19,078 nt of DNA from Pirellulaceae bacterium (GTDB lineage: Bacteria; Planctomycetota; Planctomycetia; Pirellulales; Pirellulaceae). The notes under the pieces were generated by a model. The model was not told the DNA's origin, made no database searches, and saw nothing but the letters and a program-made list of their open reading frames with translations. Location of the stretch: NCBI GenBank assembly GCA_046595915.1, contig JBKJSI010000430.1, forward strand, positions 1-19,078, written 5' to 3'. This document shows positions 1-19,078 of the stretch, in pieces; the first letter of the stretch is position 1, and each line of letters opens with the position of its first letter. A program made the position numbers and the translations under genes.

Positions 1-1
1 T

Positions 2-523
2 GAAATTCCAACGGGCGAAGACGCCTGGCCCTTTGTCGTCATCGCCAACGAAAGCCTCGATTACCTCTGCTCCGCGCGCCGCGACAAGCTCAACTTCACA
101 CCGGGCCAAATCGTGTCGCTCCAAAACGACGAAAAACTCTATCCCGATCGGTACCAACTCTTCTCCCCGCGCGGCGTCGCAACGGAAATCGTCGCCCGCA
201 GTGGCATATTAACCGTCTCGACCACCAATGAGCTCGGCATCTTTCGACTCAAAGGAAGTCGCGGCGGTCCCCTCACCCGAGGCTTCAGCGTCCGCCTTCC
301 TGTTGGCGCGACCGACTTAAGTCGAATTCCCAAGCCGCAGTTGGAAGAGTCCTTTGGTAAAGATCGCTATCAGGTTGCCCGCAATCTGTCGGAGATCGAG
401 CACAGCCTCACCAGCGCCCGTCGCGGGCGCGATTTCTACCCCATGATCGTGTCGCTTCTGGCCATCGTTTTCGCCCTCGAAAACTTACTCGCCAATCGCT
501 TCTACAAAGGAGCGACGCGGTAA
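2..523 (+). CDS. 3' end of a hypothetical protein with a single C-terminal transmembrane anchor (YPMIVSLLAIVFALENLLA). It is partial because the gene starts upstream of the window.
   Basis: Frame 2 is open from position 2 with no upstream stop, so the 113..523 ORF in the track is only the tail of a longer gene. It ends with a hydrophobic helix plus a short basic tail. The stop at 521-523 lies 13 bp before the next ATG, which suggests an operon. Confidence 0.55.
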   Translation, partial: EIPTGEDAWPFVVIANESLDYLCSARRDKLNFTPGQIVSLQNDEKLYPDRYQLFSPRGVATEIVARSGILTVSTTNELGIFRLKGSRGGPLTRGFSVRLPVGATDLSRIPKPQLEESFGKDRYQVARNLSEIEHSLTSARRGRDFYPMIVSLLAIVFALENLLANRFYKGATR

Positions 524-535
524 CGCGCGACAGTC

Positions 536-2800: not shown

Positions 2801-3478
2801 CGCGAACGATCGAAACGGCGCCCCGACATATCGAATTTGTCGCCGAACGCGTTCCACCGCTTCCGTTTGGCGTAGGGCCGGACGATTTTGGCGACGAGCG
2901 CGTACAGCAGCGAAACCAATTCGTTGCACGCCGTGCGATCTCGCGAGATCGTCGCGCCACGAGCTTGGCGGTTGGCCCTGAAGGCGTGCCCGCTGGTTTG
3001 ATTCGTGCTTCATCCGGGTTGTCGCATTCCGGAGTCGGACTCCCTGGCAAATTGGGTGACGCGGCCCGCGCTCGGCCGGTTACACCCATTTTTCCGCAGC
3101 TTAACAATCGGCTCCTCATTTGAGGTGATCATCTCGACGTACAGATTGAAAAAGAGCTTGTTTTCTTTAGGCTGCCTAGAAGGCCTAGATGGCCACTATC
3201 TAGGGCTTAGGTTGCCAGAGGAGGTCTTAGATTGCCAAGTTCATTTGCAGAGAGGGTGGCTCCGGCAGGTGCGCCCGTGGGCGGGCGCTTGGGCGCTCGT
3301 CGCGGCACGCCAATTTTACGAACCTTGTGGCGTCATTTGGTGGCGAAAATTGCCAAAAAATTCGCGGAATTTCGGGGGCAAATTGCCGGTCGAAGTTCTC
3401 GTGCTTTTGAGGCGGTTTTTAGGCAATTAGCCCCCGCCACCCGATGCCACTCGACGACGCATGTTTCTGGGACACGCT

Positions 3479-4765
3479 TTAGGGACCCATTAGGGACTCG
3501 ATTTCGTCGGCTTCGATTGGGATATCTTCCATCAAGTCCACCGTTCCGGTTTCGGTCACGAGGATGTTGTTCTCCAGGCGAACGCCAAAACCCTCTTCTT
3601 TAATGTAGATACCTGGTTCACAAGTCAACACCCAACCCGGCGTGATAGGTTGATTGATCTGGCTGAGGTCATGGACATCGAGGCCCAATGAATGGGCTAC
3701 ACCGTGCATGAAGTATTTTTTGACGGCTGGATTGTCGGGATCCTGCTTCTTAATGTCCGAGGGCTTCAGAAGCCCTAAATCAACACATTCTTTCGACGTC
3801 AATTCCTCGGTGAGCTTGCGAAGATCTTTCGTGTAGGCGCCCGGCTTCATCTCGGCGACGATCTGCCGGAAGATCCTCAGCACGGCTTGATACACCTGCT
3901 TTTGGCGACGTGAGAACTTACCTGTCACGGGAATCGTTCGCGTTAAGTCGGAGTTGTATTGGCCGTAGCCGGCCGCCACATCCATCAAGATAAGCTCGCC
4001 TTTTTTGCACACCTTGTCATTTTCGTTGTAGTGCAAAACGCAGTTGTTCTCGCCGGTACAAACGATCGGGTTATAGGCAAAAGTCGCCTTGTTTCGGATG
4101 AATTCGTGGGCGAATTCGGCTTCGATTTCGGCTTCGTTGACGCCTGGCTTGACCATTTTGAGGACGCGTAGAAATCCATCGCGTGTAATGCCGCAGGCCT
4201 TTTTGATGATGTCAACTTCGTGCGGTGATTTGCAGACCCGCATCTCGCTCATGATCCTCGCGAGGCGATGGTAGTGATGCAGCGGATAGGCTTCTTGGCA
4301 GTCGCGAATGAACTTGGCATCCCGCGATTGGACCTCGACTACCGAGCGCGGATGTTCGTTCGCATTGAGATAGACGTGTTCGAGTTCGCACATCAATGGA
4401 TGGAATATGCCTCGAAACTCGGTGAGATATTTGACATTCTTAATGCCGGAAATTCGAGTCGCTTCCTCCTTGGAAATCTTGTGCCCTTCCCAAACCTTGA
4501 GATGTTCGTTCGGTTCGCGAATGAAGAGAATCTCGCGCACCTTTTCGTCGAACGCGCTGGGCGCCAAAAGCAGCATCGTTTCTTCTTGATTGATGCCGGT
4601 TAGATAGAAAAGGTCCGAGTTTTGATGCAGCAACATCGTGCCATCACAGTTCGTCGGCATGATGTCATTAGAATTCAATACGGCGAGTGAACTCGGCAGC
4701 ATCCGGTTGACGACGCGCTCGCGATTGTTCTTAAAGAGTTCGACGGGGAGCGTTACGTTTTTCAT
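3479..4765 (-). CDS. pepP: Xaa-Pro aminopeptidase, M24B family (creatinase_N plus a pita-bread metallopeptidase domain).
   Basis: It carries the HGVAHSLGLDVHD and ENNILVTE metal-ligand signatures, and the DVAAGYGQYNSDLTRT motif is typical of M24B. I place the start at the internal ATG (MKNVTLPVELF...) at 4763-4765. The longer track ORF (to 4870) would translate straight through a perfect 16-bp palindrome. Confidence 0.88.
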   Translation of the reverse strand: MKNVTLPVELFKNNRERVVNRMLPSSLAVLNSNDIMPTNCDGTMLLHQNSDLFYLTGINQEETMLLLAPSAFDEKVREILFIREPNEHLKVWEGHKISKEEATRISGIKNVKYLTEFRGIFHPLMCELEHVYLNANEHPRSVVEVQSRDAKFIRDCQEAYPLHHYHRLARIMSEMRVCKSPHEVDIIKKACGITRDGFLRVLKMVKPGVNEAEIEAEFAHEFIRNKATFAYNPIVCTGENNCVLHYNENDKVCKKGELILMDVAAGYGQYNSDLTRTIPVTGKFSRRQKQVYQAVLRIFRQIVAEMKPGAYTKDLRKLTEELTSKECVDLGLLKPSDIKKQDPDNPAVKKYFMHGVAHSLGLDVHDLSQINQPITPGWVLTCEPGIYIKEEGFGVRLENNILVTETGTVDLMEDIPIEADEIESLMGP

Positions 4766-4815
4766 GGTTGCCTTTTCGTGTTGATATTGAGTTGCAAGGC
4801 TTCCTTGTCCCGAGG

Positions 4816-4851
4816 CGAAGCGTAAGCGAGGGATTCCTCGCTTACGCTTCG
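4816..4851. other. Perfect 16-bp inverted repeat with a 4-nt loop (cgaagcgtaagcgagg / gatt / cctcgcttacgcttcg). It sits in the 105-bp spacer between the CPBP protease stop and the pepP start.
   Basis: Read directly from the sequence. It lies 20 bp downstream of the CPBP TAA (4871-4873 on the minus strand). No U-tract follows on either strand, so it may be an intercistronic hairpin, an RNA processing site or an operator rather than a terminator. Confidence 0.6.
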
Positions 4852-4870
4852 GGTTGGGATGGAGAGCCAT

Positions 4871-5539
4871 TTAGTTGTTTCGACTTCGAACGAAATACAA
4901 GATTGCGATGAAATCGTATAAGCCATGCGCCACAATTGGCGCCAGAATATGGTCTGCGTAAAGATACAAGTAGCCGAGGATCACACTCATGAGCGTTGCG
5001 GCGACCAGATAGGTCTTGGTCATGGCATGACATAGCCCGAAGATCAGCGATGCGGCGCCGATCGCAATGCATTGTGCCGGAACAAAGTCGAACTCGAGTC
5101 GCTTCATCGCGTCCGCAACGCCTTGCTGCAAAAAGCCGCGGAACAACACTTCCTCGCCGATACCGGCCGCCCCCGCCAAAGCGACGATCTGCCATAACGT
5201 GGCTTCGCGCAGGAGCTTGGCCATCGCCTGTTCGACGACTTCACGCAGCCTCGCAAGCGGTTCCCAATTCAGTCGATCGAGTCCAGACATGACGACGAAG
5301 CAAACCAAGCCAACTCCAATTCCCAGGGCAATCGGTTTCACCAGTGAACCTTCTTCCACTCCGCTGGGACGCCCTAGTGCATGGATGCCCGCTGCCCAGG
5401 CGAGGAGGATTCCGACAACCGCGAGCCCTCCCTCGACGGCGATGAATAGCCAAATGGGTGAGGAATTGGTCTCCCTCCCCAATGATTTTCGTGACGAATT
5501 TTCCGGTGAATCCAAGGCAGGCTCGCTTCCATCGTTCAA
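4871..5539 (-). CDS. CPBP family intramembrane glutamic endopeptidase (CAAX protease / Abi-like).
   Basis: The three canonical CPBP motifs are present: EEVLFRG (EExxxR), FGLCH (FxxxH) and HGLYD (HxxxD). Multiple TM helices are present. The apparent start is TTG at 5537-5539, so the exact start is uncertain. Confidence 0.8.
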   Translation of the reverse strand: MNDGSEPALDSPENSSRKSLGRETNSSPIWLFIAVEGGLAVVGILLAWAAGIHALGRPSGVEEGSLVKPIALGIGVGLVCFVVMSGLDRLNWEPLARLREVVEQAMAKLLREATLWQIVALAGAAGIGEEVLFRGFLQQGVADAMKRLEFDFVPAQCIAIGAASLIFGLCHAMTKTYLVAATLMSVILGYLYLYADHILAPIVAHGLYDFIAILYFVRSRNN

Positions 5540-5712
5540 CCAAGACCACGCTTTGCAGCTCCGCTTTTTACGAAAAATCGAGCGTTTTCGCTACTTGCCC
5601 CAATACGGAGTTACTCGCCGCGAATTCGCCTGAACTGATAGCGCGACGCGACTCCTCAAATGACGCTATCATCCCGAAGCAGGGATTTCGCCTTCTTAAA
5701 GAGGACGTAAAG

Positions 5713-6339
5713 GTGCTCAGCTGGATTTTTCTTTTTTGTGCGATTGCCGGTGGCACGATCCTGGTTTGCCAGTTCTTGCTCACAGTGCTGGGCTTTGCCC
5801 ACTTTGGGGGCGACCATGATTTTGGCGGTGACCTGCACCATGACGGCGCGGCGAGCGACCATATCGATGTCGACCACGGCGATGGCCAGCCTAGCCACGA
5901 GTCGCATTTCGATGGCAACTGGCTTTTCGCCATGCTTTCGCTGCGAACCGTCACCGCTGGCGCAGCCTTTTTTGGCCTAGGCGGTCTCGGCGCGGCAAGC
6001 CTGCAACTGCCGGCGCTCGTGCAGCTTGGATTTGCTTCGGTTTGCGGCTTCACGGCTCTCTCAGGCGTCTACTACCTCCTTCGCAGCATGATGAAACTCA
6101 ACACCGACAATACCGTTCGGATCACTCGGGCGATCGGCCAGCGCGGCGTGGTCTATCTCACGATTCCCGCGCAGTCGTCGGGCGAAGGCAAAGTGCAGGT
6201 CACTTTGGCGAGCCGCCAAATGGAGTACCCGGCGATCACCAAGTGGGCCAACCCGCTCAAAACGGGCGAACTGATCACTGTCGTTTCCGTCGTCAACAAC
6301 TCCATCCTCGAAGTGACGCCGCTCGCGGGTGAAAAATAG
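5713..6339 (+). CDS. NfeD-like (YuaF/YqiJ-type) membrane protein with a C-terminal OB-fold beta domain. It is the partner of the downstream flotillin.
   Basis: A GTG start at 5713 is preceded by AAGAGGA (5697-5703), which is better supported than the long TTG/ATG-extended ORF starting at 5458. The protein has N-terminal TM helices, a His/Asp-rich loop (HFGGDHDFGGDLHHDGAASDHIDVDHGDGQPSHESHFDGN) and a C-terminal soluble beta-rich domain (VVYLTIPAQSSGEGKVQVTLASRQMEYPAITK...GELITVVSV) typical of short NfeD proteins. It sits immediately upstream of an SPFH/flotillin gene. Confidence 0.75.
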   Translation: MLSWIFLFCAIAGGTILVCQFLLTVLGFAHFGGDHDFGGDLHHDGAASDHIDVDHGDGQPSHESHFDGNWLFAMLSLRTVTAGAAFFGLGGLGAASLQLPALVQLGFASVCGFTALSGVYYLLRSMMKLNTDNTVRITRAIGQRGVVYLTIPAQSSGEGKVQVTLASRQMEYPAITKWANPLKTGELITVVSVVNNSILEVTPLAGEK

Positions 6340-6444
6340 CGCCCGCGAAATCGTCATAAACATCGCAACCATCCCGCAGTCCATTCAGCGTTCAAGGAAT
6401 TGCAACCTAAGTTTTCCTAATCGTTCTGCGAGACCATTGCGCCC

Positions 6445-6556
6445 GTAGGTCAGGCTCCCGCCTGACGGGACCGCGCAACTAGCCAACACTGCGTCAGGCA
6501 GGAGCCTGACCTACATGGAATTCACCTCAGCCGCGTCAGGCAGGAGCCTGACCTAC
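6445..6556. repeat. Three copies of a 24-bp stem-loop element in the NfeD-flotillin spacer. Copy A (6445-6468) is in inverted orientation and matches 22 of 24 positions. Copies B (6491-6514) and C (6533-6556) are identical direct repeats (gcgtcaggcaggagcctgacctac). Each copy contains a 7-bp stem gtcaggc/gcctgac with a 4-nt loop.
   Basis: Read directly from the sequence. A 24-mer perfect repeat cannot be a chance match in 19 kb. The inverted copy could pair with either direct copy as an alternative to the local hairpins. Confidence 0.85.
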
Positions 6557-6594
6557 CCAATACCAGCCTTCACAAAAGCCCCGGAGCTTTCCCC

Positions 6595-8199
6595 ATGCTA
6601 CTCCTCGCTCAATTACAAGACTTGCCAGCAGGCGTCATCACCGCCATCGCCATTGGCCTCGCCGCGATGGTCTTCTTCGGCTTCGTGATGTTCTTCATCC
6701 GTTGCTACAAGCGCTGCCCTTCGAATCGCGTGCTCGTGATCTATGGAAAGACCGGCTCCACCAAGGGCGCGGCAATTACCATTCACGGCGGCGCCAAGTT
6801 CGTCATCCCCGTTATTCAAGACTACGCCTACTTAAGCCTCGAACCGATTCAAATTGAAGTGCCGTTGCGCGGCGCCCTGTCCGCCGAGAACATCCGCGTC
6901 AACGTGCCGAGCGTGTTCACCGTCGCCATCGACACTCGACCTGAAGTGATGCAAAACGCCGCGGTCCGTTTGCTCGGTCTCGATAATAACCAGGTTCGCA
7001 AGCAAGCGGAAGAAATCATCTTCGGCCAGATGCGACAGGTAATCGCCTCGATGCAGATCGAGGAAATCAACCGCGATCGCGAGACGTTCCTCAAGCACGT
7101 TCAACATTCGCTCGAGCCCGAGCTCAACAAAATCGGTCTCCAGCTGATCAACGTTAATATCACCGACATCACTGACGAATCGGGTTACATCGACGCGATC
7201 GGCAAGAAGGCAGCCTCGCTCGCCATTCAACAGGCTCGCGGCGACGTCGCCGAGAATGAGCGAATGGGTGAAATCAAAGTCGCTAGCGCCGAACGCGAGA
7301 AAGCGATTCAAGTCGCGAATGCCCGTAAGGATCAATTGATCGGCACGCGCGAAGCCGCCCGCGATCAAGCGGTGCAAATCGCGAACCTCGAACGCGAACA
7401 GGGCGTCGCCGAGCAAAAAGCCAAGTTCGAACAAGAAAGCGCCGTTAAAGACGCCGAACGAGCCAAACGCGTTCAGATGGCCGACGCCGAAGCCACCGCC
7501 CTCACCGGCGAAAACTTGGCCCAAGCCAAAATCCTCGCCTCGCAAGCCGAACTCGCCGTCAAACGCGCCGAAGCCTTCGAAATCGGCGAAACTCGCAAAC
7601 GTCAAGCTGAAGCGAACGTGCTCGAAATTCAAAATCGCGCGATGGCCAAGGTCGCCGCGGCGGAAGCCGAACGTGCAGAAGCCGAACAGCGTGCGAAGCT
7701 CGAAGCGCCCGCTCGCGCCGCCAAAGCACAAATGATCGTCGAAGCCGAAGCCGCCGCCGAGAAAAAGAAGCTCGAAGCCCACGCCGAAGCGACCTCGATC
7801 TACGCCAAGCTCGAAGCCGAAGCTCGCGGCCAATATGAAATCCTCGCTAAAAAGGGCGAAGGTCTCAAATGCATCATTGATGCGTGCGGTGGCTCCAAGC
7901 AAGCCTTCCAAATGCTGATGCTCGAACATCTCGACAACCTGGCCGAAGCCTCGGCGAAAGCAATCTCGAACGTCAAGTTCGACAAGATCGTGGTCTGGGA
8001 TGGCGGCAACGGCAATGGAACCGGCAACGCCACTTCGAACTTCCTTCAAAGCATGTCAAAGACGCTTCCGCCGATGCTGCAAGTGATGAAGGATGTGGGC
8101 GGCGTCGAGTTTCCCGAAGCGCTTTTCAAGATGGAAGCCGAATCGAGCAACACGGTTAAAGCGGACGATAACAGCGCGGCAGCCGTTACGACGAAATAG
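6595..8199 (+). CDS. floT: Flotillin-like SPFH/band-7 protein (FloT/YuaG/YqiK-type). It has an N-terminal membrane hairpin, an SPFH domain and a long Ala/Glu-rich coiled coil.
   Basis: The N-terminal hydrophobic segment is followed by VLVIYGKTG...FVIPVIQDYAYLSLEPIQIEVP, which matches the SPFH core. An extended EA-rich heptad-like region is typical of bacterial flotillins. The conserved NfeD-flotillin gene pairing is present. Confidence 0.88.
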   Translation: MLLLAQLQDLPAGVITAIAIGLAAMVFFGFVMFFIRCYKRCPSNRVLVIYGKTGSTKGAAITIHGGAKFVIPVIQDYAYLSLEPIQIEVPLRGALSAENIRVNVPSVFTVAIDTRPEVMQNAAVRLLGLDNNQVRKQAEEIIFGQMRQVIASMQIEEINRDRETFLKHVQHSLEPELNKIGLQLINVNITDITDESGYIDAIGKKAASLAIQQARGDVAENERMGEIKVASAEREKAIQVANARKDQLIGTREAARDQAVQIANLEREQGVAEQKAKFEQESAVKDAERAKRVQMADAEATALTGENLAQAKILASQAELAVKRAEAFEIGETRKRQAEANVLEIQNRAMAKVAAAEAERAEAEQRAKLEAPARAAKAQMIVEAEAAAEKKKLEAHAEATSIYAKLEAEARGQYEILAKKGEGLKCIIDACGGSKQAFQMLMLEHLDNLAEASAKAISNVKFDKIVVWDGGNGNGTGNATSNFLQSMSKTLPPMLQVMKDVGGVEFPEALFKMEAESSNTVKADDNSAAAVTTK

Positions 8200-8258
8200 T
8201 CGGCGAATACTGAAAAACCAAGTTGGGGGAGGTGTCAATCAGGCAGCCTCCCCGCGAT

Positions 8259-8295
8259 AATGGCCGCGACACATGCTTCGCGGCCATTGCTTTTG
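8259..8295 (+). terminator. Probable rho-independent terminator of the flotillin transcript. An 11-bp perfect stem aatggccgcga / tcgcggccatt with an 8-nt loop is followed by gcttttgg.
   Basis: The GC-rich perfect hairpin sits about 60 bp after the flotillin TAG and is followed by a short T-run. A second, weaker hairpin (gggagg...cctccc, 8226-8253) precedes it. Confidence 0.5.
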
Positions 8296-8694
8296 GTGAC
8301 TTAACAATGCAGTGGGCGAGGCACGGAGTCCTCGCGAATGCTTGTTGCCCAGCTCAACGCGAGCCAAATCCTTTACGGCCAACTCGATTGGATTCAAATC
8401 GTCATCTATTTCTAGCCAAATTACTTTCGCAACTCTTTCGGCTATTCGCAGATTTTTCTTTCACGCCGCCGAGGGTATTTCTTAGCGAGGAATCAACAGA
8501 AATTCCGCTGCCTCCGCCGACGCCACCTGCGGCCGCGACTACTGATGGTGCGCCTCCGGCGCCGCCGAATCTGACCGAGCCGACTTTGCTTTTAAATCAT
8601 ATGAAATGGAACGTTGCGAAATTGGCTTTGGCCATGTGGCTACGCTATAGTGTTTCGCATCTTGGTTAACGCGAAATTCGACGCGAGGTCTCGG

Positions 8695-9741
8695 ATGCGC
8701 AGTTACTTGAAACCTTTCTGGCGACGCCCGCAGTTTTCGTTGGCGACTTTTATGGTCGTTATTGCGTTGACCTCCGTCCCTTTTGCCTATGTGCAGTACC
8801 GCCGGTCTTGGAATACCCGGCGAATGGAGGCCAGGCGTAAGCTGGTTCAGCTCGGGGTTCAGTTTGCTTCAAAGTCGACGAATCCCTACCAATATCGCTG
8901 GCGAACGCTGATCGACTCGATCTTTCTGGAAGATGGTTATCAAGCCCTTCATGTGCATGACGGTTGGGGCCCTTCGACTGGGCAACCGCCCTCCAAATTC
9001 GACTCTTATCCGCTTCAATATTTTCCTGAAATGGAAACGCTTGCGCTGGGTCCCGCTCCCTATGTCAATGATGAGATGCTCGGAGTCGTCGCTGTTTTGC
9101 CACGCCTTGAGTATTTAAGCGTTTCCGGCGTCAGCGGCAGTTTTTTGCAGCGCCTTCCGTCTCACTCCAAGATTGAAACGCTTCGAATTCGCGGCATGGC
9201 CAGTCCTTGCTCGCTCGGTTTGGCTCGGTTAAGCAGCCTTGCCCATCTGAAGGAACTCGAAATCGGCGGGGCTACGAATCTGAGCGATGAATGTTTTCGA
9301 GGCGTTGAACTGCCCGAATCGATCGAAGAGTTGGTGCTCAATGACTGTAGGGTCGGCGATCAGACACTCGTTCGCTGGCTCACAAATTGCAAGTTCAAGA
9401 AGTTAACCCTCAACGTTCCGATGACTCGAGGTATTTCGCGCGCGCTGGCAGGCCAAACGGAATTGGAGGAGCTTGATCTCCAAGGGGCTCCCTTGATTGA
9501 TGACGATTTTGAGTTCTTGTCTCGTTGCAAGCGATTGAAGATATTGTGTCTGCGAGACGTGCCTGTCTGCGGCGACTTTTTGGGGAAAATGACGGGTCTG
9601 AAGAATCTTGAGAAACTCGAACTAATCGATACGCTGACGCCCCCATCACGGGTTCGCAGTTTTTGGCTGACGGTTCGTAGGTCGCAAGGTCTTGAGGCAA
9701 ACGCCGCGGAGGTTGAGAATGAAGCTCAGCGCGCACAGTAA
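8695..9741 (+). CDS. Leucine-rich-repeat protein with an N-terminal signal-anchor/TM helix (planctomycete-type LRR protein).
   Basis: An ATG at 8695 is preceded by GAGGT. An N-terminal TM helix (FSLATFMVVIALTSVPFAYV) is followed by repeated LxxLxLxxC/N motifs (LEYLSVSG, LKELEIGG, IEELVLNDC, LEELDLQGA, LKILCLRDV, LEKLELID). The track ORF starting at 8614 adds 27 unsupported codons. Confidence 0.75.
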   Translation: MRSYLKPFWRRPQFSLATFMVVIALTSVPFAYVQYRRSWNTRRMEARRKLVQLGVQFASKSTNPYQYRWRTLIDSIFLEDGYQALHVHDGWGPSTGQPPSKFDSYPLQYFPEMETLALGPAPYVNDEMLGVVAVLPRLEYLSVSGVSGSFLQRLPSHSKIETLRIRGMASPCSLGLARLSSLAHLKELEIGGATNLSDECFRGVELPESIEELVLNDCRVGDQTLVRWLTNCKFKKLTLNVPMTRGISRALAGQTELEELDLQGAPLIDDDFEFLSRCKRLKILCLRDVPVCGDFLGKMTGLKNLEKLELIDTLTPPSRVRSFWLTVRRSQGLEANAAEVENEAQRAQ

Positions 9742-10037
9742 TCTCGGACCTTCGAAACCCGATCTAGAGACTTTGCTCGCTTAATCTCGTACTCGAGCAC
9801 TTCCAGGATTTGGCGTGTTTGCGCCGGGCTATAGGCGATATCGCCCGACTCTTCGGAACATTCCCTACGAAACAAGGAAGCAGATTGGGCAGTAATAACC
9901 ACGACCATACCTGAATTCAGCATGGCTCCCTGAACGCGGTCCTATCTTTGTCTAACAGCGAAATCACAGCTTGAATCAGGGCGTAGATTATCGCTGAAGA
10001 CGTAAACAAGCTGGACGGCCGAACGGTTGCAATCTTC

Positions 10038-12437
10038 ATGTCCTCTCGATTACAAAACATCGCTCTTCCGGCCTACAAATTGATTGGCGCAATCCGTGAC
10101 CGCCTCGGTTCATTCGCGTCGCGTTACCGGCGCATTTGCAATTTCGGATCTTACGCGGCTCTCGGTGTGTTGATCGCCGGATTTACGCTGACCTGGTTGG
10201 CCGCGTTTCGAACGGTGCAACAAACAGAACAGCAAAATCAAGCCGTCTTCGAAAAGCTGTCGGAGCGCGCGGTTCAGGAAGTGCAGCGGCGGATTGGTCG
10301 ATACGAATATGGCTTGCTGGGAACAAGGGGAATATTTGTCGCGAGTGACCTTGTCACTCAAGAAGACTTCCTTGCCTATGCCAATTCACTCAAATTGGAG
10401 ATCGATTTTCCGGGCGCGACGAGCCAAGGATTCATCCAACGCGTGAAACGGAGTGAACTCAAAACGTTTCTCGAACAATTCTCTGGTGATCGTCCATTGC
10501 ATTTCACATTTCGCGCCACCGAGAACGGCGATGAATACTGGGTGGTGAAATACGTCGAACCGATCGTGAGAAATCTCGACTTGCGAGGCTTTGACATCGC
10601 AAGCGACGCATCCATTCAAGGCGCGGCGCTTCAATCGATGAGGTCGGGAATGCCTTCGGCGATCAAAACAGGGCTTACTTTTCCACACCAAGGATCGTCG
10701 AACGCACTGCTTTGCCTACTGCCAATCTATCGCCGTGGCGTCGCACAAAACTCGTCGAAAGCGCTAGAGCGGGCATGCATTGGCTGGAGTTTTATGACGG
10801 TTGATTCGGAGAAGGCATTTAGCGCCGTGACACAAGCCGCGGAAGAGAAGTTGGATGTGGAGATTTTTAACGATCAAGGCGCCTTGGTCGCTTCGATCGC
10901 TGCTGGCAACGAATCGTATACGAAAGCAGCGCAAGGAATCGAAACTGCGGAATCGCCAAATGCAACCGAACTTCGCAAGAGCGCGCCGTTACGCGTTTTT
11001 GGAGCGGAGTGGACTGTTCGAGTATGTTCGAATGAACATTTCGATCGCTCAGTGTGGACAGGCGGCGTCCTAGTCGTTTCATCGGTCGGTTTCGTGGTGA
11101 CCTTACTCGTCGCGGGACTTGTCTGGAATCTACAGACTTCGCAAGAACGTGCTTATCGGCTGGCTCGCAGCATGACCGTGGAACTCAAAATCGCTAAGGA
11201 AGAAGCCGAAGCGGCCAATCTCGCCAAGAGCGAGTTCCTCGCCAATATGAGTCACGAGATCCGCACGCCGATGACGGCGATTATGGGCTTTGCCGACTTG
11301 CTCGACGAATTTGGCGATCGCAAATCGGCGCCGCGCCAACGATTGGAATATATCGCCACGATTCGCCGCAATAGCGAACACCTACTCGCGATTATCAATG
11401 ATATTCTTGACCTTTCCAAGATTGAGGCAGGCAAACTCATCGTCGAGCGAATGCCTACCGACGTTGTGCAAATCGTGCATGACATTCTCTCACTGATGAA
11501 TGTTCGAGCGGTCGCGAAAGGCATTGTCCTGGAAGGTGAGTTGGCGACGGCGATCCCCGCGATGATCTATTGCGATCCGATTCGGCTTCGACAGATCCTG
11601 GTTAACCTGGTTGGAAACGCGATCAAGTTTACGGATACGGGTTCGGTAAAGATCGCCGTTCGATATCTGAACGAGGGAAATGGCACGCTTCAGTTTGACG
11701 TAATGGATACCGGAATCGGCCTGACACCTGAACAGATCGGCACGTTGTTTCAATCCTTCACCCAGGCGGATGCCGGGACGACGCGAAAATATGGCGGATC
11801 CGGACTGGGGCTTTGCATCAGCAAGCGCCTGTCAAATCTCTTGGGCGGCGACATTAGCGTGCGTAGCATGCATGGACGAGGAAGTGTTTTCAGTGTGACG
11901 ATTCGCGGCGAAGCGGCAACGCGAAAGGGTGAAATGCTGGCGGCGGGAAAAATCGGTGCGACGGAAGGATTGCAAATCGATCCTAACGCCGATGTTATGA
12001 AGCAAACAACCAATGCTCGCCCCCTGGAAGGACTGCGCATCTTATTGGCAGAGGATGGTCCAGATAACACGCGACTGATTGTGCATTTTCTCACCACGGC
12101 AGGCGCCCAAATCGACGCAGTTGAAAATGGTCGCTTGGCGGTTGAAAGGCTCTCCGTCAACGGCGATATCGATGAACAGTTGCTCGATCCACCGCCTTAC
12201 GATCTGCTCTTAACTGATATGCAAATGCCCGTCATGGATGGATTCATGGCGACGCGACTTTTGCGGGCCAAGGGCTGCCGAATGCCAATCGTCGCCCTGA
12301 CTGCCAACGCCATGAGCGGCGATGACGATCGCTGCAAAGCGGCTGGCTGCGATGATTACGCTTCGAAGCCGATTGCACGGGGCAAATTGATCAATACGAT
12401 CTTAAAGCAGCAAAAAGCGGTGGCGGTGATTCAATAG
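10038..12437 (+). CDS. Hybrid sensor histidine kinase/response regulator with an extracytoplasmic CHASE-like sensor domain. The order is TM, CHASE, TM, HisKA, HATPase_c, REC.
   Basis: Two TM helices bracket a roughly 300-aa extracytoplasmic domain carrying the CHASE-like signature ([50 protein letters not shown]). The H-box is [17 protein letters not shown]1/G2 boxes are present ([22 protein letters not shown]). The C-terminal receiver has the phospho-acceptor LLLTDMQMP and the conserved K in ASKPI. Confidence 0.9.
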
Positions 12438-12592
12438 GAGTGCGAACTTCACAAAGAGTCGATGCTCCGAATCGGGTTGTTATCGGGGCTCGCATTCGCG
12501 GCGGACTATCCCCAAAATAGCTTTGCACCGAAACCAGCCCGCCGCAAGATCTTGCCGGCAGGCTGCGAGGCTACACATCTGGGAGATTGCTC

Positions 12593-13570
12593 ATGCCGAC
12601 CACCGGAACTCATGCGATTCTCGGCCCTCACAAGCGACTTGCGGGCGCAGCGTCCAAGGAGCGGTTTGCTTGTCAGCTATTTGACACGCTCTGGGAGCGA
12701 TATCGGCAACGAGTCTCCTACGTGCAGACGTATGAACAAGTCGTAGCGAGCGCTGGCGCGACGTTCTTCAATGACCATATCGCCTTTCGGACCATTGGCT
12801 GCGAACGCCCGGCGGTGGGGATTCACTCCCTGTCGCGAATTTTTGAAGCGTTGGGATACGTCGCAGCGGGAAACTATGTCTTCACCGACAAGCATTTGGC
12901 GGCAACCCATTTCCAGCATGCCAATCCACAGTTTCCTAAGATCTTCATTTCGGAACTAAGGCTATGGGAATTGCCGCGACCGGCGCGGGAGATCATTCAG
13001 CGCCTCTTAGATTCACATCGCGAACCGATTTCAGATGAATCGCTGGCGACGCTCTTTGACCTCGATCACACCGATGTGGGTCATGGCGACGTCGACGCAT
13101 GGGAGCGACTAATGGAAGTGGTCATAAGTCACTTTCAGGATTTGCCTTGGGACGCGCCTTCGCAAGCAGAAGTCGTCGCGATGAACAAACTCAGCCAATA
13201 TGGTGCGTGGGTGATGGTGCATGGCTACAACGTCAATCACTTCACATCGCTAGTCAATTCGCATGGCGTCGATGGACTCAATGACATCGAAAAGACCATC
13301 ACAGCGCTCGAGCAAGCCGGCGTGCCAATGAAGAAGGAGATTGAAGGGGAACGCGGGAGTAAGCTAAGGCAAACCGCAACCGAGGCAGTGAATATTCCAG
13401 TCGAGATGGTGGCCGAAGGAAAACGGGCAAAGTTACCTTGGACTTATGCGTACTTTGAATTGGCGCAGCGCGACAACGTCATTGACCCGATAACGGGAAA
13501 ACCGACTCGCTTTGAAGGTTTTCTAGGTCCACAGGCGACAAATCTGTTTGAAATGACGCGAGTGAAATAA
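12593..13570 (+). CDS. DUF1338 family protein (HglS/YdcJ-like putative Fe(II)-dependent 2-oxoadipate dioxygenase/decarboxylase, VOC fold), short form.
   Basis: An ATG at 12593 is preceded by GGGAG (12581-12585). The motifs FNDHIAFRT, LGYVAAGNYVF...HLAATHF and PKIFISEL match my recollection of the conserved DUF1338 blocks. The family assignment is from memory and is not verified by a search. Confidence 0.6.
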   Translation: MPTTGTHAILGPHKRLAGAASKERFACQLFDTLWERYRQRVSYVQTYEQVVASAGATFFNDHIAFRTIGCERPAVGIHSLSRIFEALGYVAAGNYVFTDKHLAATHFQHANPQFPKIFISELRLWELPRPAREIIQRLLDSHREPISDESLATLFDLDHTDVGHGDVDAWERLMEVVISHFQDLPWDAPSQAEVVAMNKLSQYGAWVMVHGYNVNHFTSLVNSHGVDGLNDIEKTITALEQAGVPMKKEIEGERGSKLRQTATEAVNIPVEMVAEGKRAKLPWTYAYFELAQRDNVIDPITGKPTRFEGFLGPQATNLFEMTRVK

Positions 13571-13668
13571 CTACAATCCGCGCCATCTCGATCCAGGTCG
13601 CATTTTTTTTGGGGTGACATGGCAATGGGTACTCTGAAGGCCATGTCCGAGGTTGCTTGATAATTCGC

Positions 13669-13941
13669 CTACTGCGGTCGCGGCCCCCAAAACATTTCAC
13701 TCCAGATCTGCGCCCGCTCTGCCTGCGGGACTTGCTGCATGTATTCGCGCGGCCTGGCGCCAACGACTGCGGGCCCAATCGAGCTATCAGGATAAGGATC
13801 CCAAATAGCGGCTTCGTAGCGTTGTTGGCGGATCGTACCGGGATTGAATAGGTTCGGATACTTAACGAACTGACTCGCGCAACCCAAGTTGCTTGAGGCG
13901 ACTAGCAGCAAGGCGATAACGAGAGTAATTCGGCGCAGCAC
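13669..13941 (-). CDS. Small secreted lipoprotein-like protein (90 aa). Its signal peptide, MLRRITLVIALLLVASSNLGC, is followed by an acidic/aromatic mature part.
   Basis: A GTG start is preceded by a strong RBS (GAGGAG, 7-nt spacer). It has a classic n-h-c signal peptide with a Cys after a lipobox-like NLG. It lies 120 bp downstream of, and on the same strand as, the HTTM gene. An 8-bp hairpin (gcgatagc/gctatcgc, 14007-14036) sits in the spacer. Confidence 0.5.
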   Translation of the reverse strand: MLRRITLVIALLLVASSNLGCASQFVKYPNLFNPGTIRQQRYEAAIWDPYPDSSIGPAVVGARPREYMQQVPQAERAQIWSEMFWGPRPQ

Positions 13942-14061
13942 AATCCGGCTCCTCGCCGCGAGAAGGTCGCAGCGCGCCCGCGATGGTAGTCTCCTGGAAG
14001 TGCATAGCGATAGCCGAAAATGTAAGTTGCTATCGCGAGGATGCTGGCAGTATCACTGATG

Positions 14062-15102
14062 TTAGCCCCGGACCCCGGCAAGCCTGGAACGCGGCGGGCC
14101 TTTATCTACGACTTCTTGTGGGCTTGAGTGGACTAGTTCCCATCCAAAGAGTCGGTGTAGCAATCGGGCGACAGATTGCACTCCACCATCGACCAGCTTG
14201 GGTGACAGGAAGCACATATTGGCAAAGATCATCGCCGCTCCAAAGGTCGGCATTCCCATAGCAACGCCAATGCCGCCATGAATTAGCACGGCGCACCCGA
14301 GCGCGAACCATCGAGTCGACTTAGGCCAAACCAAAGCTGGATAGGTAGCTTCCCAGAAGACAGTGAGATGAGTCATGAACGCGAGCACAATCGGCGCGTG
14401 CGCCAGCCACGTCATATTGAGCGATTGATATTGAAAACTCGCGAGCGCTTCCCAAACGGCGCTGCCATCCCACCAAGCTGGGCCCCGCATTTTTTCGACG
14501 CCCGAATAGAAGTAGACGATGCAAAGATGGATTTGAAGCAGACGAATTGCCAAGTTGACGCTGACAAATTCCTTGGGTCGCGCCGCTTCCGTCTCCTTGG
14601 AACGAAGCCAAGCGTCGATCGAGTAGCGTTCGCCGCATGGCCCAAGCATCAGATAGAGGGCCATCATGCCATTGACTTGATCAAGGCCGTATTGAAGCAA
14701 CGAAAATCGATGGGAATAGGAGATCGTCAAGAAGCAGGCAAGAACCGCCATTACACGAGTGCGATATCCGAGAGTGAAGAGTGCAAAAACGATCAGTGCG
14801 AGGATGTGGGCGGTCCAAATAACCGCCGTGTTTACCGGCAACCAATCAAAGTGGGTCCAGGCGAAAGAATAGTCTCGTCCCCAGCGCTCGAATACTTCGT
14901 GCGAGACTTTGGAAGGCGCCCAGCCGTGAGGGCCAATAATCTTGATGAGATCGAAAGACCAAATGAGGTGCGTATAGAACATCAATCCGCCGCTGAGCAC
15001 GCGCAAGAGGCAGAGAGTGTGGGGTTCGTTCTTGGCGAACCAAAAACGATCCCACTCAGCGATTCGATCTTTAAACCAGGTAGCGAGGAACTTTCTGATC
15101 AT
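14062..15102 (-). CDS. HTTM-domain polytopic membrane protein (vitamin-K-dependent gamma-carboxylase-like/SdpB-like family).
   Basis: The N-terminal signature (WFKDRIAEWDRFWFAKNEPHTLCLLRVLSGGLMFY) matches the HTTM consensus (DRFWF...R...G). About 8 TM helices are present across roughly 346 aa. Its start ATG overlaps the upstream gene's stop (ATGA, 15099-15102). Confidence 0.8.
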   Translation of the reverse strand: MIRKFLATWFKDRIAEWDRFWFAKNEPHTLCLLRVLSGGLMFYTHLIWSFDLIKIIGPHGWAPSKVSHEVFERWGRDYSFAWTHFDWLPVNTAVIWTAHILALIVFALFTLGYRTRVMAVLACFLTISYSHRFSLLQYGLDQVNGMMALYLMLGPCGERYSIDAWLRSKETEAARPKEFVSVNLAIRLLQIHLCIVYFYSGVEKMRGPAWWDGSAVWEALASFQYQSLNMTWLAHAPIVLAFMTHLTVFWEATYPALVWPKSTRWFALGCAVLIHGGIGVAMGMPTFGAAMIFANMCFLSPKLVDGGVQSVARLLHRLFGWELVHSSPQEVVDKGPPRSRLAGVRG

Positions 15103-15761
15103 TTCTTCAGTTCCTCCTCCTTGGGTGGTTGTTCGGGCAAAGTCTCAAACAGGCGCGGATCGGTGAGCGACCACCCGCTCATGAATTCTTGATAAGTCGG
15201 TGCTCGATGCACGACCCGATCGACAACCGCGTGGGTCCCGTGAAACTCGCGCGCGAGGCCTTGTTCAATTGCGTTCTTGAGAATCACATAGTTCGCCCTA
15301 CGCTTCACAATGTCTTTCCGAACATCCTCAGGGAGTTTTGGATCAGGCTCGTCGGCGACCATCCACATTTGATTGAGCGTTTCGCTGAGCATGAAATAGC
15401 GATGGTAGCGCAATCGCGGCAAATGTTCTGATTTGCTCGGAAATCGCCCTTCCTTGATCACATCTCCCGACGCATTGAAAACGCGGTAATCCACAACGTG
15501 CGTCGGTCCTGGATTTGGTGCGAAGAAGGAATACCCATGATCCAGGTAAAGCGGTTGATAATAGCGTTCAAATATCATGTCGGGATAATTCGCAAACGGC
15601 GAACCACCCTCCGGCGATGTCGTGATGAAGCGAAAAGGCGCCCAAAATACCGCCAGTACATGAAAGACGATCAAGCAGCTGACGACTGCCTTAACGCTAG
15701 GCGTCCAGAGAGTATTCACAGTTGCAGCGGCTGGCTTCATACCAGACCAATCGGCGCGCAC
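15099..15761 (-). CDS. Membrane-anchored 220-aa protein of unknown function, translationally coupled to the HTTM gene (candidate SdpA-like accessory).
   Basis: It is a long ORF with an N-terminal hydrophobic helix (AVVSCLIVFHVLAVFWAPF) followed by a soluble domain. Its stop overlaps the HTTM start. The start is either GTG at 15761 or ATG at 15740. Confidence 0.65.
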   Translation of the reverse strand: MRADWSGMKPAAATVNTLWTPSVKAVVSCLIVFHVLAVFWAPFRFITTSPEGGSPFANYPDMIFERYYQPLYLDHGYSFFAPNPGPTHVVDYRVFNASGDVIKEGRFPSKSEHLPRLRYHRYFMLSETLNQMWMVADEPDPKLPEDVRKDIVKRRANYVILKNAIEQGLAREFHGTHAVVDRVVHRAPTYQEFMSGWSLTDPRLFETLPEQPPKEEELKK

Positions 15762-15806
15762 GGAATGTGCGGCAAAGATTATTGATCGCGCGCCGCGCCA
15801 TGCCGG

Positions 15807-15851
15807 AAAACAAAAAAACCCTCGCTTTAGCCATAGCTAGAGCGAGGGTTT
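15807..15851 (-). terminator. Rho-independent terminator, possibly bidirectional. An 11-bp stem aaaccctcgct / agcgagggttt with a 14-nt loop is flanked by an A-run (15811-15818) and T-rich sequence.
   Basis: On the minus strand the hairpin is followed by TTTTTTTGTTTT, which is the canonical arrangement for terminating the upstream TIGR03000 gene (stop at 15892). It separates that gene from the HTTM cassette. Confidence 0.75.
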
Positions 15852-15891
15852 CAAATGTTAAAATCAGATTATTAAGAAAGCCAACGGCTGA

Positions 15892-16935
15892 CTACCGAAG
15901 GGCGATCTTGCCTTCGGCTGGGCTGTCGACGAACGAGAAGTTCTGAGTCTCGCCGGCGCGGAGAGTGATGGTCTTTTCCATCGATTCTTCCTTGCCATCC
16001 TTTTCGAAGCTCACCTTGATGGTGTAATCGGCCCAAGCAGCGCCACCGCTCAGCTTGGCAGTGCGGAACACGCGGGTGCCACCGGTGGCTTTGGTCGGGT
16101 TGCCGCCCAAAGTGACCTTGGCGTTTTCTGGCACGTTGAGAATCAAAACCGTCTCACTCGGCTTCGCAGCTTCCGTCTTGGGAGCGTCGGCCTTGAAGGC
16201 GACGTCCATGACATGACCAGGTCGCACGACGACATTCTTCACTTCTTCGATTTCTTTGCCATCGACGGTGAAGGTCGCTTTGACTTCGTAGTTGTAAGTT
16301 GCGCCGGCATCAAGACCGCGCGAGACAAACTGTCGCATTTCGCCGGTGCTCTTGGTTTCCTTGCCATTCACGAAGACCTTCGCTTCGGCAGGAACGGAAA
16401 CCGCGAGGATTGCTTCGCTGGCGGGAATGCCAGTGCTTCCTGCAACTTCGCTGTAGGCTGGAGCGTAAGCAGCGCCGTAGGCGCTGCCAACGGAGCCACC
16501 ATAAGTGCCGCCGTAATAGTAACCACCGGAAGATCCACCAGAGGACCCGCCCGAGTAAATCACACCGCCAGAAGAACCACCCGAAGATCCACCGGAGGAA
16601 CCGCCCGAAGAGCCGTAATAGTGGCCCGAGGATCCACCAGAGGAACCGCCGGACGATCCGTAATAAGAACGTCGATACGTTGCGCGAGCATAGTGACGAT
16701 CAGCCATGCGACGGAAAAGGCCGTGGCGATGACCTGACGAACCGCCCGAAGATCCACCCCAGCTACCGCCGGAAGAACCGTAATAGGCATAACCACCAGA
16801 CGAGCCGCCCGAGGATCCACCAGAAGATCCACCCGACGAACCCCATCCTGCCAGGGACTCAGCGGAACCGGCGACCAGCGAAGTCGCGCAAACGGCCGCC
16901 GCTAGCGCCCAACCTGTAAATTTCTTGCGCAGCAT
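15892..16935 (-). CDS. Secreted protein with a long Gly/Ser/Tyr-rich low-complexity region and two C-terminal TIGR03000 (planctomycete-specific) domains.
   Basis: An ATG at 16933-16935 is preceded by GGAGAG. The signal peptide is MLRKKFTGWALAAAVCATSLVAGSA. About 125 aa consist of (GSSGGSS)n with interspersed Tyr. Two roughly 75-aa repeats carry the VPxxAKVxxNG...T...G..R.F......Y.Y.V.A....DG pattern of TIGR03000. The 16-codon N-terminal extension in the track (start 16983) has no support. Confidence 0.8.
   Translation of the reverse strand: MLRKKFTGWALAAAVCATSLVAGSAESLAGWGSSGGSSGGSSGGSSGGYAYYGSSGGSWGGSSGGSSGHRHGLFRRMADRHYARATYRRSYYGSSGGSSGGSSGHYYGSSGGSSGGSSGGSSGGVIYSGGSSGGSSGGYYYGGTYGGSVGSAYGAAYAPAYSEVAGSTGIPASEAILAVSVPAEAKVFVNGKETKSTGEMRQFVSRGLDAGATYNYEVKATFTVDGKEIEEVKNVVVRPGHVMDVAFKADAPKTEAAKPSETVLILNVPENAKVTLGGNPTKATGGTRVFRTAKLSGGAAWADYTIKVSFEKDGKEESMEKTITLRAGETQNFSFVDSPAEGKIALR
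16480..16860. repeat. Imperfect 12-bp tandem DNA repeats (units such as ccaccggaggaa / ccgcccgaagag, in two blocks) that encode the (SSGG)n low-complexity region.
   Basis: Read directly from the sequence. The repeats show coding-frame periodicity on the minus strand. Confidence 0.7.
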
Positions 16936-17251
16936 GCAATTTCTCTCCAAAGTGAAGGTGCGTAAGCGTGTCGGGACGCGCAACGCTGTCAGTTTCGCTT
17001 TCCGAACATAGCAAGCGTAGCTTGCAATTCAAGCAGTTAGCGAGTTTTTGCCTATTGCGCAGACCTGGCGGTCTGGAGAAACGGCAATGACACCCACTCT
17101 AAAGAGGGGGTAATGTTTGTGCCGTAAATCGACCCATCAACCGTTGTTTACTTGAACTCGCATCCATAGTCGTTGATAATTCGCGATGGCGGCCCAAACG
17201 CCGTCACCCGCCAGTTAATGCCCACCCTGCCTCCGTTCATTGAGACCACGC

Positions 17252-19078
17252 ATGATGCGTCCCGCCTTGGCTCGTATTCTATTTCTTTCTACTGCCCTAC
17301 CTTTCGCTGTTCTGGTTGTGCAGGTTGCGCCGGCGCAGGATGGAGCAGCAGGAGCAGCGAAATGGTCGCAGCTTTCCGTTCTAGGAGGAGAATCGTATCA
17401 CCTAGCGGGCCGTGATTCAGCAGCTCAGTTGGTAGTGACCGCAAAGAAGGCCGATGGCAGCGAAGTCGATGCGACTCGCGACGTGCAATATCTCGCCGAG
17501 CCAATGGGAATCGTTGGCGTTGATGCAACGGGCTACGTCTCCGCTCAAGCAGAGGGCGAGGCGACCATCAAAATCAGCGGACCCGATGGACTTGCTGCCT
17601 CGGCAAAAGTGAAGGTCACCGACCTGAATACTGACTTGCCTATCAACTTTCCCAATCAGATCACGCCGATCTTCACCAAGTTTGGGTGCAACGGAGGCGG
17701 ATGTCACGGCAAGTCGGGCGGGCAAAATGGCTTTCGACTATCGCTCCTCGGTTTCGAGCCGAAGGAAGATTTTGAATTCCTCGTGAAGGAAGTCCGTGGT
17801 CGCCGACTCTTCCCCGCCGCGCCCGATCGCAGTTTGCTCTTACTCAAAGCAACCGGCTCGTTGCCTCATGGCGGCGGCGCTCGCATTGAGCCCGACTCGA
17901 CTTCGTATCGTTTGGTCCGCCGCTGGATTGAGCAAGGAATGCCTTATGGCGCGGCTACCGATGCTCATGTCACTCATATATCGGTCTCACCCACCGAACG
18001 CATTCTTTCGCGAGGCGGCGAACAACAAGTTTCGGTCATCGCCCACCTTTCCAATGGCAAGACCGAGGATGTGACCCGCACGACCCAGTTTGATTCCAAC
18101 GATGGCGAAATGGCCGGCGTAAGCGTGACCGGCCTCGTCTCCACCAATCAACTCACTGGCTCGGTCGCGATCATGGCTCGCTATCAAGGCCACGTCGGCG
18201 TCTTTCGCGCAACGATTCCACTAGGAATCGAAGTCACCAATCTGCCACCAAATCGCAACTACATCGATGAGTTTGTTTTCGCGAAGCTGAAAAAGCTCGG
18301 CTTGCCTCCATCCGGCTTGTGCGATGACGCGACTTATCTGCGACGAGTAACTGTCGATATTTGCGGCCGTTTACCGACGCTCGAAGAATCCGAAGCGTTT
18401 CTCAAGGACGCTGACCCCAACAAACGCGACCGGCTGGTGAGTCAATTGCTCGATAGTGCGGACTACGCCGAGAATTTCGCGAACAAATGGTCGGCAATCC
18501 TTCGCAACAAGCGTCGCAATGACCAAGACAAGAATGCGACCTTTGCGTTCCATGAGTGGATTCGTGAATCGCTGCTCGACAACGTTCCCTATGACCAATT
18601 TGTGCGAGCGATCGTTTCCGCGACCGGCGAACCGGGAAAAAATCCGCCCGCCGCTTGGTATCGCGAAGTCAAAGATGCCTCCGCGCAAGTCGAAGACACC
18701 GCGCAGCTCTTCCTGGGACTCCGAATTCAATGCGCCCGTTGCCATCACCATCCATTCGAAAAATGGAGCCAGCAAGACTACTACGGAGTCGCCGCGTTCT
18801 TTTCGCAAGTTGGCCGAAAGAAGGGCGAGCGAAATGATTCCGACCGAATTTATCACCGCGTCGGAACGGCATCCGCGACAAATCCCAAAACCAACCAAGG
18901 CGTAAAACCGACCGGACTTGGGGCCGCACCACTCGATATCGCGCCCGACGCTGATCCCCGCATCGCGCTGGCGGATTGGATGAGCGATCCTAACAACGCC
19001 TTCTTCTCCAAGGCGCTGGTGAATCGCTATTGGAAGCACTTCTTCAGCCGCGGGCTAGTCGATCCTGAAGATGACATG
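17252..19078 (+). CDS. PSCyt1/Big_2/PSCyt2 (DUF1549) planctomycete cytochrome-c-domain protein. It is partial at the 3' end (609 codons) and runs off the window.
   Basis: This ORF is not in the supplied track because it has no stop codon. The frame is open from the ATG at 17252 to the end of the window. A signal peptide is present. Ig-like Big_2 segments are present. The PSCyt1 heme-like motif is FTKFGCNGGGCHG and the DUF1549 hallmarks are DICGRLPT and RIQCARCHHHPFEKWSQQDYYGVAAFF. Confidence 0.9.
   Translation, partial: MMRPALARILFLSTALPFAVLVVQVAPAQDGAAGAAKWSQLSVLGGESYHLAGRDSAAQLVVTAKKADGSEVDATRDVQYLAEPMGIVGVDATGYVSAQAEGEATIKISGPDGLAASAKVKVTDLNTDLPINFPNQITPIFTKFGCNGGGCHGKSGGQNGFRLSLLGFEPKEDFEFLVKEVRGRRLFPAAPDRSLLLLKATGSLPHGGGARIEPDSTSYRLVRRWIEQGMPYGAATDAHVTHISVSPTERILSRGGEQQVSVIAHLSNGKTEDVTRTTQFDSNDGEMAGVSVTGLVSTNQLTGSVAIMARYQGHVGVFRATIPLGIEVTNLPPNRNYIDEFVFAKLKKLGLPPSGLCDDATYLRRVTVDICGRLPTLEESEAFLKDADPNKRDRLVSQLLDSADYAENFANKWSAILRNKRRNDQDKNATFAFHEWIRESLLDNVPYDQFVRAIVSATGEPGKNPPAAWYREVKDASAQVEDTAQLFLGLRIQCARCHHHPFEKWSQQDYYGVAAFFSQVGRKKGERNDSDRIYHRVGTASATNPKTNQGVKPTGLGAAPLDIAPDADPRIALADWMSDPNNAFFSKALVNRYWKHFFSRGLVDPEDDM

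Follow-up and report, generated by a model that had tools for sequence, protein, structure and literature searches.

A conserved HTTM membrane protein and partner subunit in Pirellulales, with a secreted Gly/Ser-repeat protein as candidate client

When a planctomycete carries an HTTM gene between a gene for an accessory protein and a gene for a small exported protein, is this a peptide-maturing cassette of the sdpABC type? The question is raised by a stretch of DNA from a Pirellulaceae bacterium (GCA_046595915.1, contig JBKJSI010000430.1, positions 1-19,078, forward strand), all 19,078 nt of which are called the window here. The first-pass annotation had read three of its genes as such a cassette; they are named A (accessory protein), B (HTTM membrane protein) and C (small exported protein) below. 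The sequence and its open reading frames (ORFs) bear out the description of A, B and C as co-directional genes on the minus strand, and also the overlap of B's start with A's stop through ATGA (15102-15099). The gene ahead of A, here T, had been taken as insulated from the cassette and unrelated to it; this view was contradicted, as T is a conserved neighbour found in 68 of 80 related loci. The conserved unit is T, a terminator and A-B, and C is a lineage-specific appendix. The features of this region are listed below in the direction of transcription.

15892..16935, minus strand: gene T, 347 aa from the ATG at 16935, a start that fits its relatives (the ORF reaches a TTG at 16983)
15807..15852, minus strand: intrinsic terminator in the T-A gap (hairpin 15852-15815 and U-run)
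15099..15761, minus strand: gene A, an ORF of 220 aa from a GTG
15099..15102, minus strand: ATGA stop/start overlap of A and B, with B's ATG over A's TGA
14062..15102, minus strand: gene B, an ORF of 346 aa
14010-14045, minus strand: perfect 8-bp inverted repeat in the B-C spacer
13949..13953, minus strand: Shine-Dalgarno sequence AGGAG of gene C, 7 nt ahead of its GTG
13669..13941, minus strand: gene C, 90 aa, with a GTG start 120 bp past the stop of B

On balance, we consider it probable that A and B make up a split membrane enzyme resembling the vitamin-K gamma-glutamyl carboxylase GGCX, probably menaquinone-dependent and modifying targets in the periplasm, with T as its likeliest client and C as an addition of one lineage.

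A coupled pair with an HTTM core

One genome per species was scanned, giving 506 loci with a relative of B, and the best 80 of these (41-52% identical to B) were analysed. A homologue of A stood directly upstream of B on the same strand in all 80 (E from 1e-36 to 1e-76), in agreement with the earlier description of an accessory protein tightly coupled to the HTTM protein, and the identical 4-bp overlap was found in ~63 of them. The ATGA overlap indicates translational coupling of A and B; its recurrence, together with the invariable upstream position of A, marks the two as the subunits of an obligate unit. The pair was also kept in two divergent subfamilies, represented by loci L087 and L088. 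Flanking genes varied on both sides among the 80 loci (Asd, TruA, Dtd, an RND adaptor-like lipoprotein and others were found downstream of B), and no biosynthetic genes, such as those for non-ribosomal peptide or polyketide synthetases (NRPS/PKS) or glycosyltransferases, were conserved beside the pair. In Pirellulales, A-B belongs to the core of the lineage; it is no niche toxin cassette. We judge it likely that the two proteins would assemble into a physical complex, a heterodimer. In L087 the HTTM gene was broken into ORFs of 230 aa and 114 aa (5801-6864) by a frameshift, which is either an assembly error or a pseudogene in that metagenome contig.

B is a genuine core of the HTTM superfamily (GGCX/SdpB) and a polytopic membrane protein, but it is incomplete as a GGCX. 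The 346-aa window protein itself gave no match to Pfam PF05090 at E<=1, an outcome that the first-pass annotation had itself listed among those that would refute its reading. The assignment lost this direct match and was upheld at the level of the family. The consensus of 31 B-family members matched PF05090 at 35.9 bits (cut-off 27.7) over 257 of 259 profile positions, and 12 of the 31 aligned relatives matched it individually (best E 8e-14). B also matched TIGR04033, the SdpB family (E=3e-12), with 46.7 bits that fall far under the cut-off of 178.4, and its sequence points to only a distant relationship with SdpB. Database searches returned 289 relatives of B, almost all from Pirellulales-type planctomycetes, many of them annotated as HTTM or carrying precomputed PF05090 matches.

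The AlphaFold2 (AF2) model of B (pLDDT confidence score 85.3) was compared with the Protein Data Bank (PDB) using Foldseek. Human GGCX filled the top 16 places, with E from 1e-6 to 3e-4, probability 1.0 and TM-scores of 0.51-0.58 for 15 of these matches, and the first match to any other protein came only at E=0.37. PDB sequence and profile searches with B gave no matches; GGCX was reached only through the fold search and through pairwise profile alignment. In the latter, for which a human sequence 100% identical to the PDB chains was used, hhalign of the B-family profile against GGCX 51-324 aligned residues 57-321 (probability 85.6%, E 5.6e-6). K204 of B (GVEKM) was aligned to the catalytic K218 of GGCX (GVKKL) by both hhalign and hmmsearch, and W211 to W223 in the profile alignment; K204 and W211 were invariant across the 31 B-family sequences. 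No conserved Cys pair was present in the same alignment. A thiol-oxidoreductase role was considered and rejected, as a conserved pair is lacking in B and none is found in mature T or C.

B ends right after the membrane core. It shares with human GGCX the fold of that core (its only significant PDB fold match) and the catalytic Lys with the following Trp. In the human enzyme, a single chain of 758 aa also includes a large luminal domain to which propeptide and Glu bind. Here a 346-aa core stands beside a separate and unrelated-looking A, and unlike in the human system, no Gla-type (gamma-carboxyglutamate) substrate is present at the locus.

For A, an in-frame ATG at 15740 gives a protein of 213 aa, nearer to the 214-217 aa of its relatives than the product of the GTG start, and this ATG is probably the true start. 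In the deposited annotation A seems to be called only as a 131-aa fragment (P0128, beginning VDYRVF), without the helix and without the first motif, the most conserved one. A word-indexed search found 118 relatives of A, and 1241 representative clusters were recovered, all of them stand-alone proteins of ~200-400 aa. In the AF2 model (pLDDT 84.5), residues 21-47 form a membrane helix, consistent with the earlier description of A as membrane-anchored, and an alpha/beta domain follows. The charge bias around the helix (+1.3 N-terminal and -0.8 C-terminal of it) predicts an N-in topology that would place the domain outward, in the periplasm. The family alignment contains two invariant motifs, YLDHGYxFFAPxPG and PRLxYHRYFML, and many invariant His, Tyr and Arg residues.

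Neither window A nor the family members nor their consensus matched any Pfam or NCBIfam model, and the PDB fold search with the A model found no similar solved structure. The SdpA model TIGR04034 gave no match at E<=10 for A or any of 57 members, and DUF5819 (PF19136) was matched by one of the 57 at E=0.29 and not by the consensus; A as an SdpA or DUF5819 protein was rejected, since the profile searches gave no support. Two further candidates were discarded. GYSFFAPNPG of A resembles GYSWDMM of GGCX, and A was tried as the split-off C-terminal half of that enzyme; hmmsearch and hhalign against human residues 325-729 were empty (probability 0.3%). Apparent A-B fusion proteins were also dropped, as the longer A matches were insertion variants only.

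Bacillus sdpABC had been given as the one characterised bacterial context of HTTM proteins; this no longer holds, as MloH and the DUF5819-HTTM pairs have also been described. The locus works most like the latter, and more loosely like SdpAB. In those pairs an HTTM protein and a single-pass DUF5819 partner are predicted to mimic a whole GGCX (bioRxiv 10.64898/2026.08.19.745780). As in A, the partner has one N-terminal helix and a domain of ~160 aa and is encoded beside the HTTM gene; the HTTM proteins on both sides have a conserved Lys...Trp motif, spaced as Lys189/Trp195 in those pairs, and in B K204 is followed by W210 and W211. The differences are that A lacks a PF19136 match, that B lacks their C-terminal DCC1-like domain, and that the Gly/Ser-repeat neighbour conserved here is not described there. 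For MloH, a bacterial HTTM enzyme from the malonomycin pathway of Streptomyces, carboxylase chemistry of the vitamin-K type has been demonstrated at a non-Glu position, so the chemistry of the family is broader than Gla formation. Unlike A-B, MloH is a fused single protein in a natural-product cluster, and no biosynthetic cluster is present at this locus.

Gene T and the proposed function

T encodes a signal peptide, ~150 aa of GSSGG-type repeats with Tyr and Trp, a central His/Arg-rich segment (HRHGLFRRMADRHYAR) and two TIGR03000 domains (plancto_dom_1; 130.9 bits versus a cut-off of 43.1, E=1e-38, in two stretches). A full-length T homologue was found directly upstream of A-B in 68 of the 80 loci. 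Five of the 12 T-negative loci have too little upstream sequence, which leaves T in 68 of the ~75 loci where it would fit. At the T position, 54 of the 80 loci have an ORF in which Gly+Ser make up at least 60% over 40 residues; of the 2133 other ORFs in the same loci, none does so. This adjacency was maintained at 31-51% protein identity while both flanks turned over.

The two divergent subfamilies show which part of T is retained. L087 has a shorter T with one TIGR03000 domain ahead of A-B, and L088 has a 123-aa protein consisting of a signal peptide, GSSGS repeats and a basic segment (HGSRLRLRKRASHGSHG), without TIGR03000. Because only the repeat module is kept in the latter, a secreted Gly/Ser-repeat module is the feature that travels with A-B. 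The C-terminus of the L088 protein reads ...FRKGCC. The central His/Arg cluster recurs in T homologues (L001-L080, L087 and L088), often as G-L-F-x-R followed by His/Arg runs and flanked by GSSGG. A protein resembling protein-L-isoaspartate O-methyltransferase (PCMT), with an N-terminal signal or membrane segment, is encoded upstream of T in a subset of loci: L056 (1799-3151, plus strand), L089 (1738-3072, plus strand) and nine of the 80.

The strong terminator that the first-pass annotation had placed upstream of A is real (15852-15815). It has a 16-bp interrupted stem followed by U7-G-U4, and its hairpin has a folding free energy (dG) of -26.8 kcal/mol (z = -5.6), with none of 200 shuffled sequences folding equally well. 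A generic promoter and terminator scan was uninformative and missed it. A hairpin with a T-run followed the stop codon of T in 51 of 68 related loci, versus one of 68 control windows inside B, so that T is a separate, and probably highly expressed, transcription unit ahead of A-B.

In the mechanism we propose, B would be the quinone-binding HTTM core with its catalytic lysine, K204, retained, and A would add one membrane helix and, in the periplasm, a domain that probably covers the active site and determines which substrate is taken. A would then play the part of the C-terminal luminal half of GGCX, as has also been proposed for DUF5819 proteins. Planctomycetes use menaquinones, and the most economical guess is therefore a strong-base mechanism that is driven by quinol and O2 and has its client in the periplasm; A-B would use menaquinol and O2 to make a strong base in the manner of GGCX. 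The chances that the chemistry of A-B is quinone-dependent seem to us about even. T is the best client candidate because of its conservation, and its repeat region around the His/Arg-rich segment would be modified or matured by A-B in the periplasm. That T is the client at all we put forward tentatively, as possible but less likely than not. C may be an extra client or accessory in its clade, and it stands outside the conserved system.

Several observations weigh against a split GGCX-like enzyme with T as its client. The Glu-binding residues of GGCX are given as N159, H160 and Y395 (PMC12647623); the equivalents of N159 and H160 in B are ambiguous, with the two alignment methods disagreeing on H160, and Y395 falls in the luminal half and is missing from B. 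Neither sequence nor fold comparisons detected any likeness of A to SdpA, to DUF5819 or to the luminal half of GGCX, so its clamp-like role is argued from architecture and gene coupling only. Hardly any Glu or Asp occurs in the repeat region of T (0-8 residues across most orthologues), which excludes classical gamma-Glu carboxylation of that region. A strong terminator stands between T and A-B, T is missing from seven loci with room upstream, and the adjacency of T and A-B could be inherited synteny and not function.

Inherited synteny is also what would be expected if A-B were a general housekeeping membrane factor without a dedicated client, a quinone-linked redox or chaperone protein like DoxX, MauE or LMF1. 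The terminator of T and the seven loci without T fit this explanation, as do the near-ubiquity of the pair in the lineage (relatives in 506 species-level genomes), its position beside the housekeeping genes Asd, TruA and Dtd, and the weak matches of a few B-family members to DoxX, MauE or DoxD. A factor of this kind does not account for an adjacency that holds at 31-51% protein identity with both flanks turning over, or for its persistence in divergent subfamilies where only the Gly/Ser-repeat part of T remains, and B lacks a conserved Cys pair for thiol chemistry. We regard a housekeeping role as unlikely.

The split enzyme with T as its likeliest client also has a more specific form, in which A-B would be dedicated to the Gly/Ser repeats of T, docking on the His/Arg segment as GGCX docks on a propeptide and abstracting C-alpha protons from Gly or Ser. 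We rate this form as a long shot. If it were true, carboxylation of Gly to aminomalonate, epimerisation to D-residues, or elimination and cross-linking would be possible, and a planctomycete envelope protein would carry a previously unknown post-translational modification.

Gene C, sdpABC and non-protein substrates

Large database searches recovered seven homologues of C at 70-89% identity, together with one short metagenome locus. A hidden Markov model (HMM) of the C family gave no match in the 80 loci (best E=0.6), and no non-homologous small lipoproteins stood downstream of HTTM in these loci. Window C and its counterpart in L081 differ at 15, 7 and 51 sites in the first, second and third codon positions, with 42 synonymous versus 18 non-synonymous codon changes; by this measure C is a real gene under purifying selection. 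The small ORF is conserved within a narrow clade and not beyond it, as C is absent from all 80 of the more distant A-B loci. C follows T-A-B in every carrier, ahead of four different downstream neighbours (HGLS, an epimerase, TetR and another), and lies co-directionally 108-147 bp from B in all C-bearing genomes. It does have a ribosome-binding site (RBS) of its own, 120 bp past B (AGGAG, 13953-13949), and a hydrophobic N-terminus, as had been noted; a GGAGC RBS is invariant in four orthologous B-C spacers despite GTG, TTG or ATG starts.

The hydrophobic N-terminus of C ends in G20-C21, invariant in eight sequences. Positions -3/-2 (N-L, S-S, P-C and others) deviate from the classical L-[AS]-[GA]-C lipobox, and a signal-peptidase-I site (G-C-A/S, with cleavage after A) may be an alternative. 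From its sequence, C is a probable exported lipoprotein. The mature protein of ~69 aa is highly conserved, with invariant E43, D48, D52 and E66; the invariant cysteine of G-C is its sole cysteine, and it has no hydrophobic C-terminal toxin segment, no propeptide and no Gla-like Glu cluster. A protein identical to C was missing from the protein collection, so that the source record probably has no annotation for C.

The 120-bp B-C spacer is poorly conserved apart from its inverted repeat and the Shine-Dalgarno sequence. The repeat (GCGATAGC...GCTATCGC) lies just past the stop of B, with a 14-nt loop and no T-run, and similar hairpin potential was found in the L083 and L081 spacers. Its role could lie in the stability or the processing of the RNA.

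These data bear on the sdpABC-like explanation, by which A-B would mature C, for example by carboxylating its conserved Glu residues or by processing it. In Bacillus subtilis, SdpA-SdpB-SdpC (paralogue YitPOM) share the order of accessory, HTTM and exported protein with A, B and C, and the SdpB family is the best curated match of B (E=3e-12). The constant placement of C 108-147 bp past B in every genome that carries it, kept across four changes of downstream gene, the strong purifying selection and the invariant E43, D48, D52 and E66 of the mature protein would all suit a client. The likeness does not extend to the proteins: B falls under the TIGR04033 cut-off, A is not an SdpA (TIGR04034), and window C matched no NCBIfam model, SdpC included, so the gene order cannot be said to reproduce the logic of sdpABC. 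SdpC is a 203-aa protein that gives a 42-aa hydrophobic toxin, with the immunity genes sdpRI downstream (PMC6818787). C, a 90-aa probable lipoprotein, has none of the SdpC features, being without a hydrophobic C-terminal toxin segment, a Cys pair, a propeptide or a Gla-like Glu cluster, and no immunity or regulator genes were found in the window. The earlier remark that it holds no sdpI/sdpR-type gene was right, with none among the neighbours (an HGLS protein, a histidine kinase and others). Very large databases contain no more than 8-9 sequences of C, and the proposed conservation of A, B and C as a neighbouring trio was not borne out, C being present in 0 of the 80 A-B loci. A-B must have another function in those loci, and we consider maturation of C an improbable account of the system.

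That A-B acts on a non-protein substrate, such as a small molecule, a lipid or a glycan of the envelope, is very improbable. In its favour, MloH acts on a polyketide-peptide intermediate, so that bacterial HTTM enzymes need not target ribosomal proteins (PMC12647623), and A has no recognisable protein-binding fold. Against it, no NRPS/PKS or glycosyltransferase genes are conserved beside the pair, and its sole conserved neighbour is a secreted protein.

The surrounding genes and the meaning of the locus

Genes in positions 1-13570 of the window are syntenic with L083. Five of them are listed here.

536-2800, plus strand: GATase1-like/VWA protein, syntenic with L083
3479-4870, minus strand: M24 Xaa-Pro aminopeptidase, syntenic with L083
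4871-5539, minus strand: Rce1-like CAAX protease, syntenic with L083
10038-12437, plus strand: CHASE hybrid histidine kinase, syntenic with L083
12587-13570, plus strand: HGLS 2-oxoadipate dioxygenase/decarboxylase-like protein, convergent with C and syntenic with L083

A very high AT skew (0.35) was seen in 7000-8000, within a Band_7/SPFH gene (6595-8199, plus strand), and probably reflects a purine-rich stretch coding for a charged coiled coil. On the other side of the locus, an ORF of at least 620 aa (17219-19078, plus strand) is divergent from T and continues beyond the window end; it is the counterpart of a PSCyt2/PSD1/Big_2 protein of ~825 aa that every close relative (L081, L083 and L086) encodes at this position. 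An Rfam scan of the whole window gave zero matches.

In the searchable literature, no account was found of the A family, the Pirellulales module described here, TIGR03000 proteins, HTTM in Planctomycetes, or a vitamin-K carboxylase in connection with Rhodopirellula. Among the bacterial relatives of vitamin-K carboxylase, roles have been assigned only to SdpB, by genetics, and to MloH, by biochemistry. The tempting analogy with sdpABC is corrected here. The locus represents a probable split form of the enzyme that is spread across the lineage. Its partner subunit comes from a family for which neither Pfam nor NCBIfam has a model, and a secreted Gly/Ser-repeat protein provides a concrete and conserved candidate client. 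The cluster is found in cultured strains, for example Blastopirellula marina DSM 3645 (L032).

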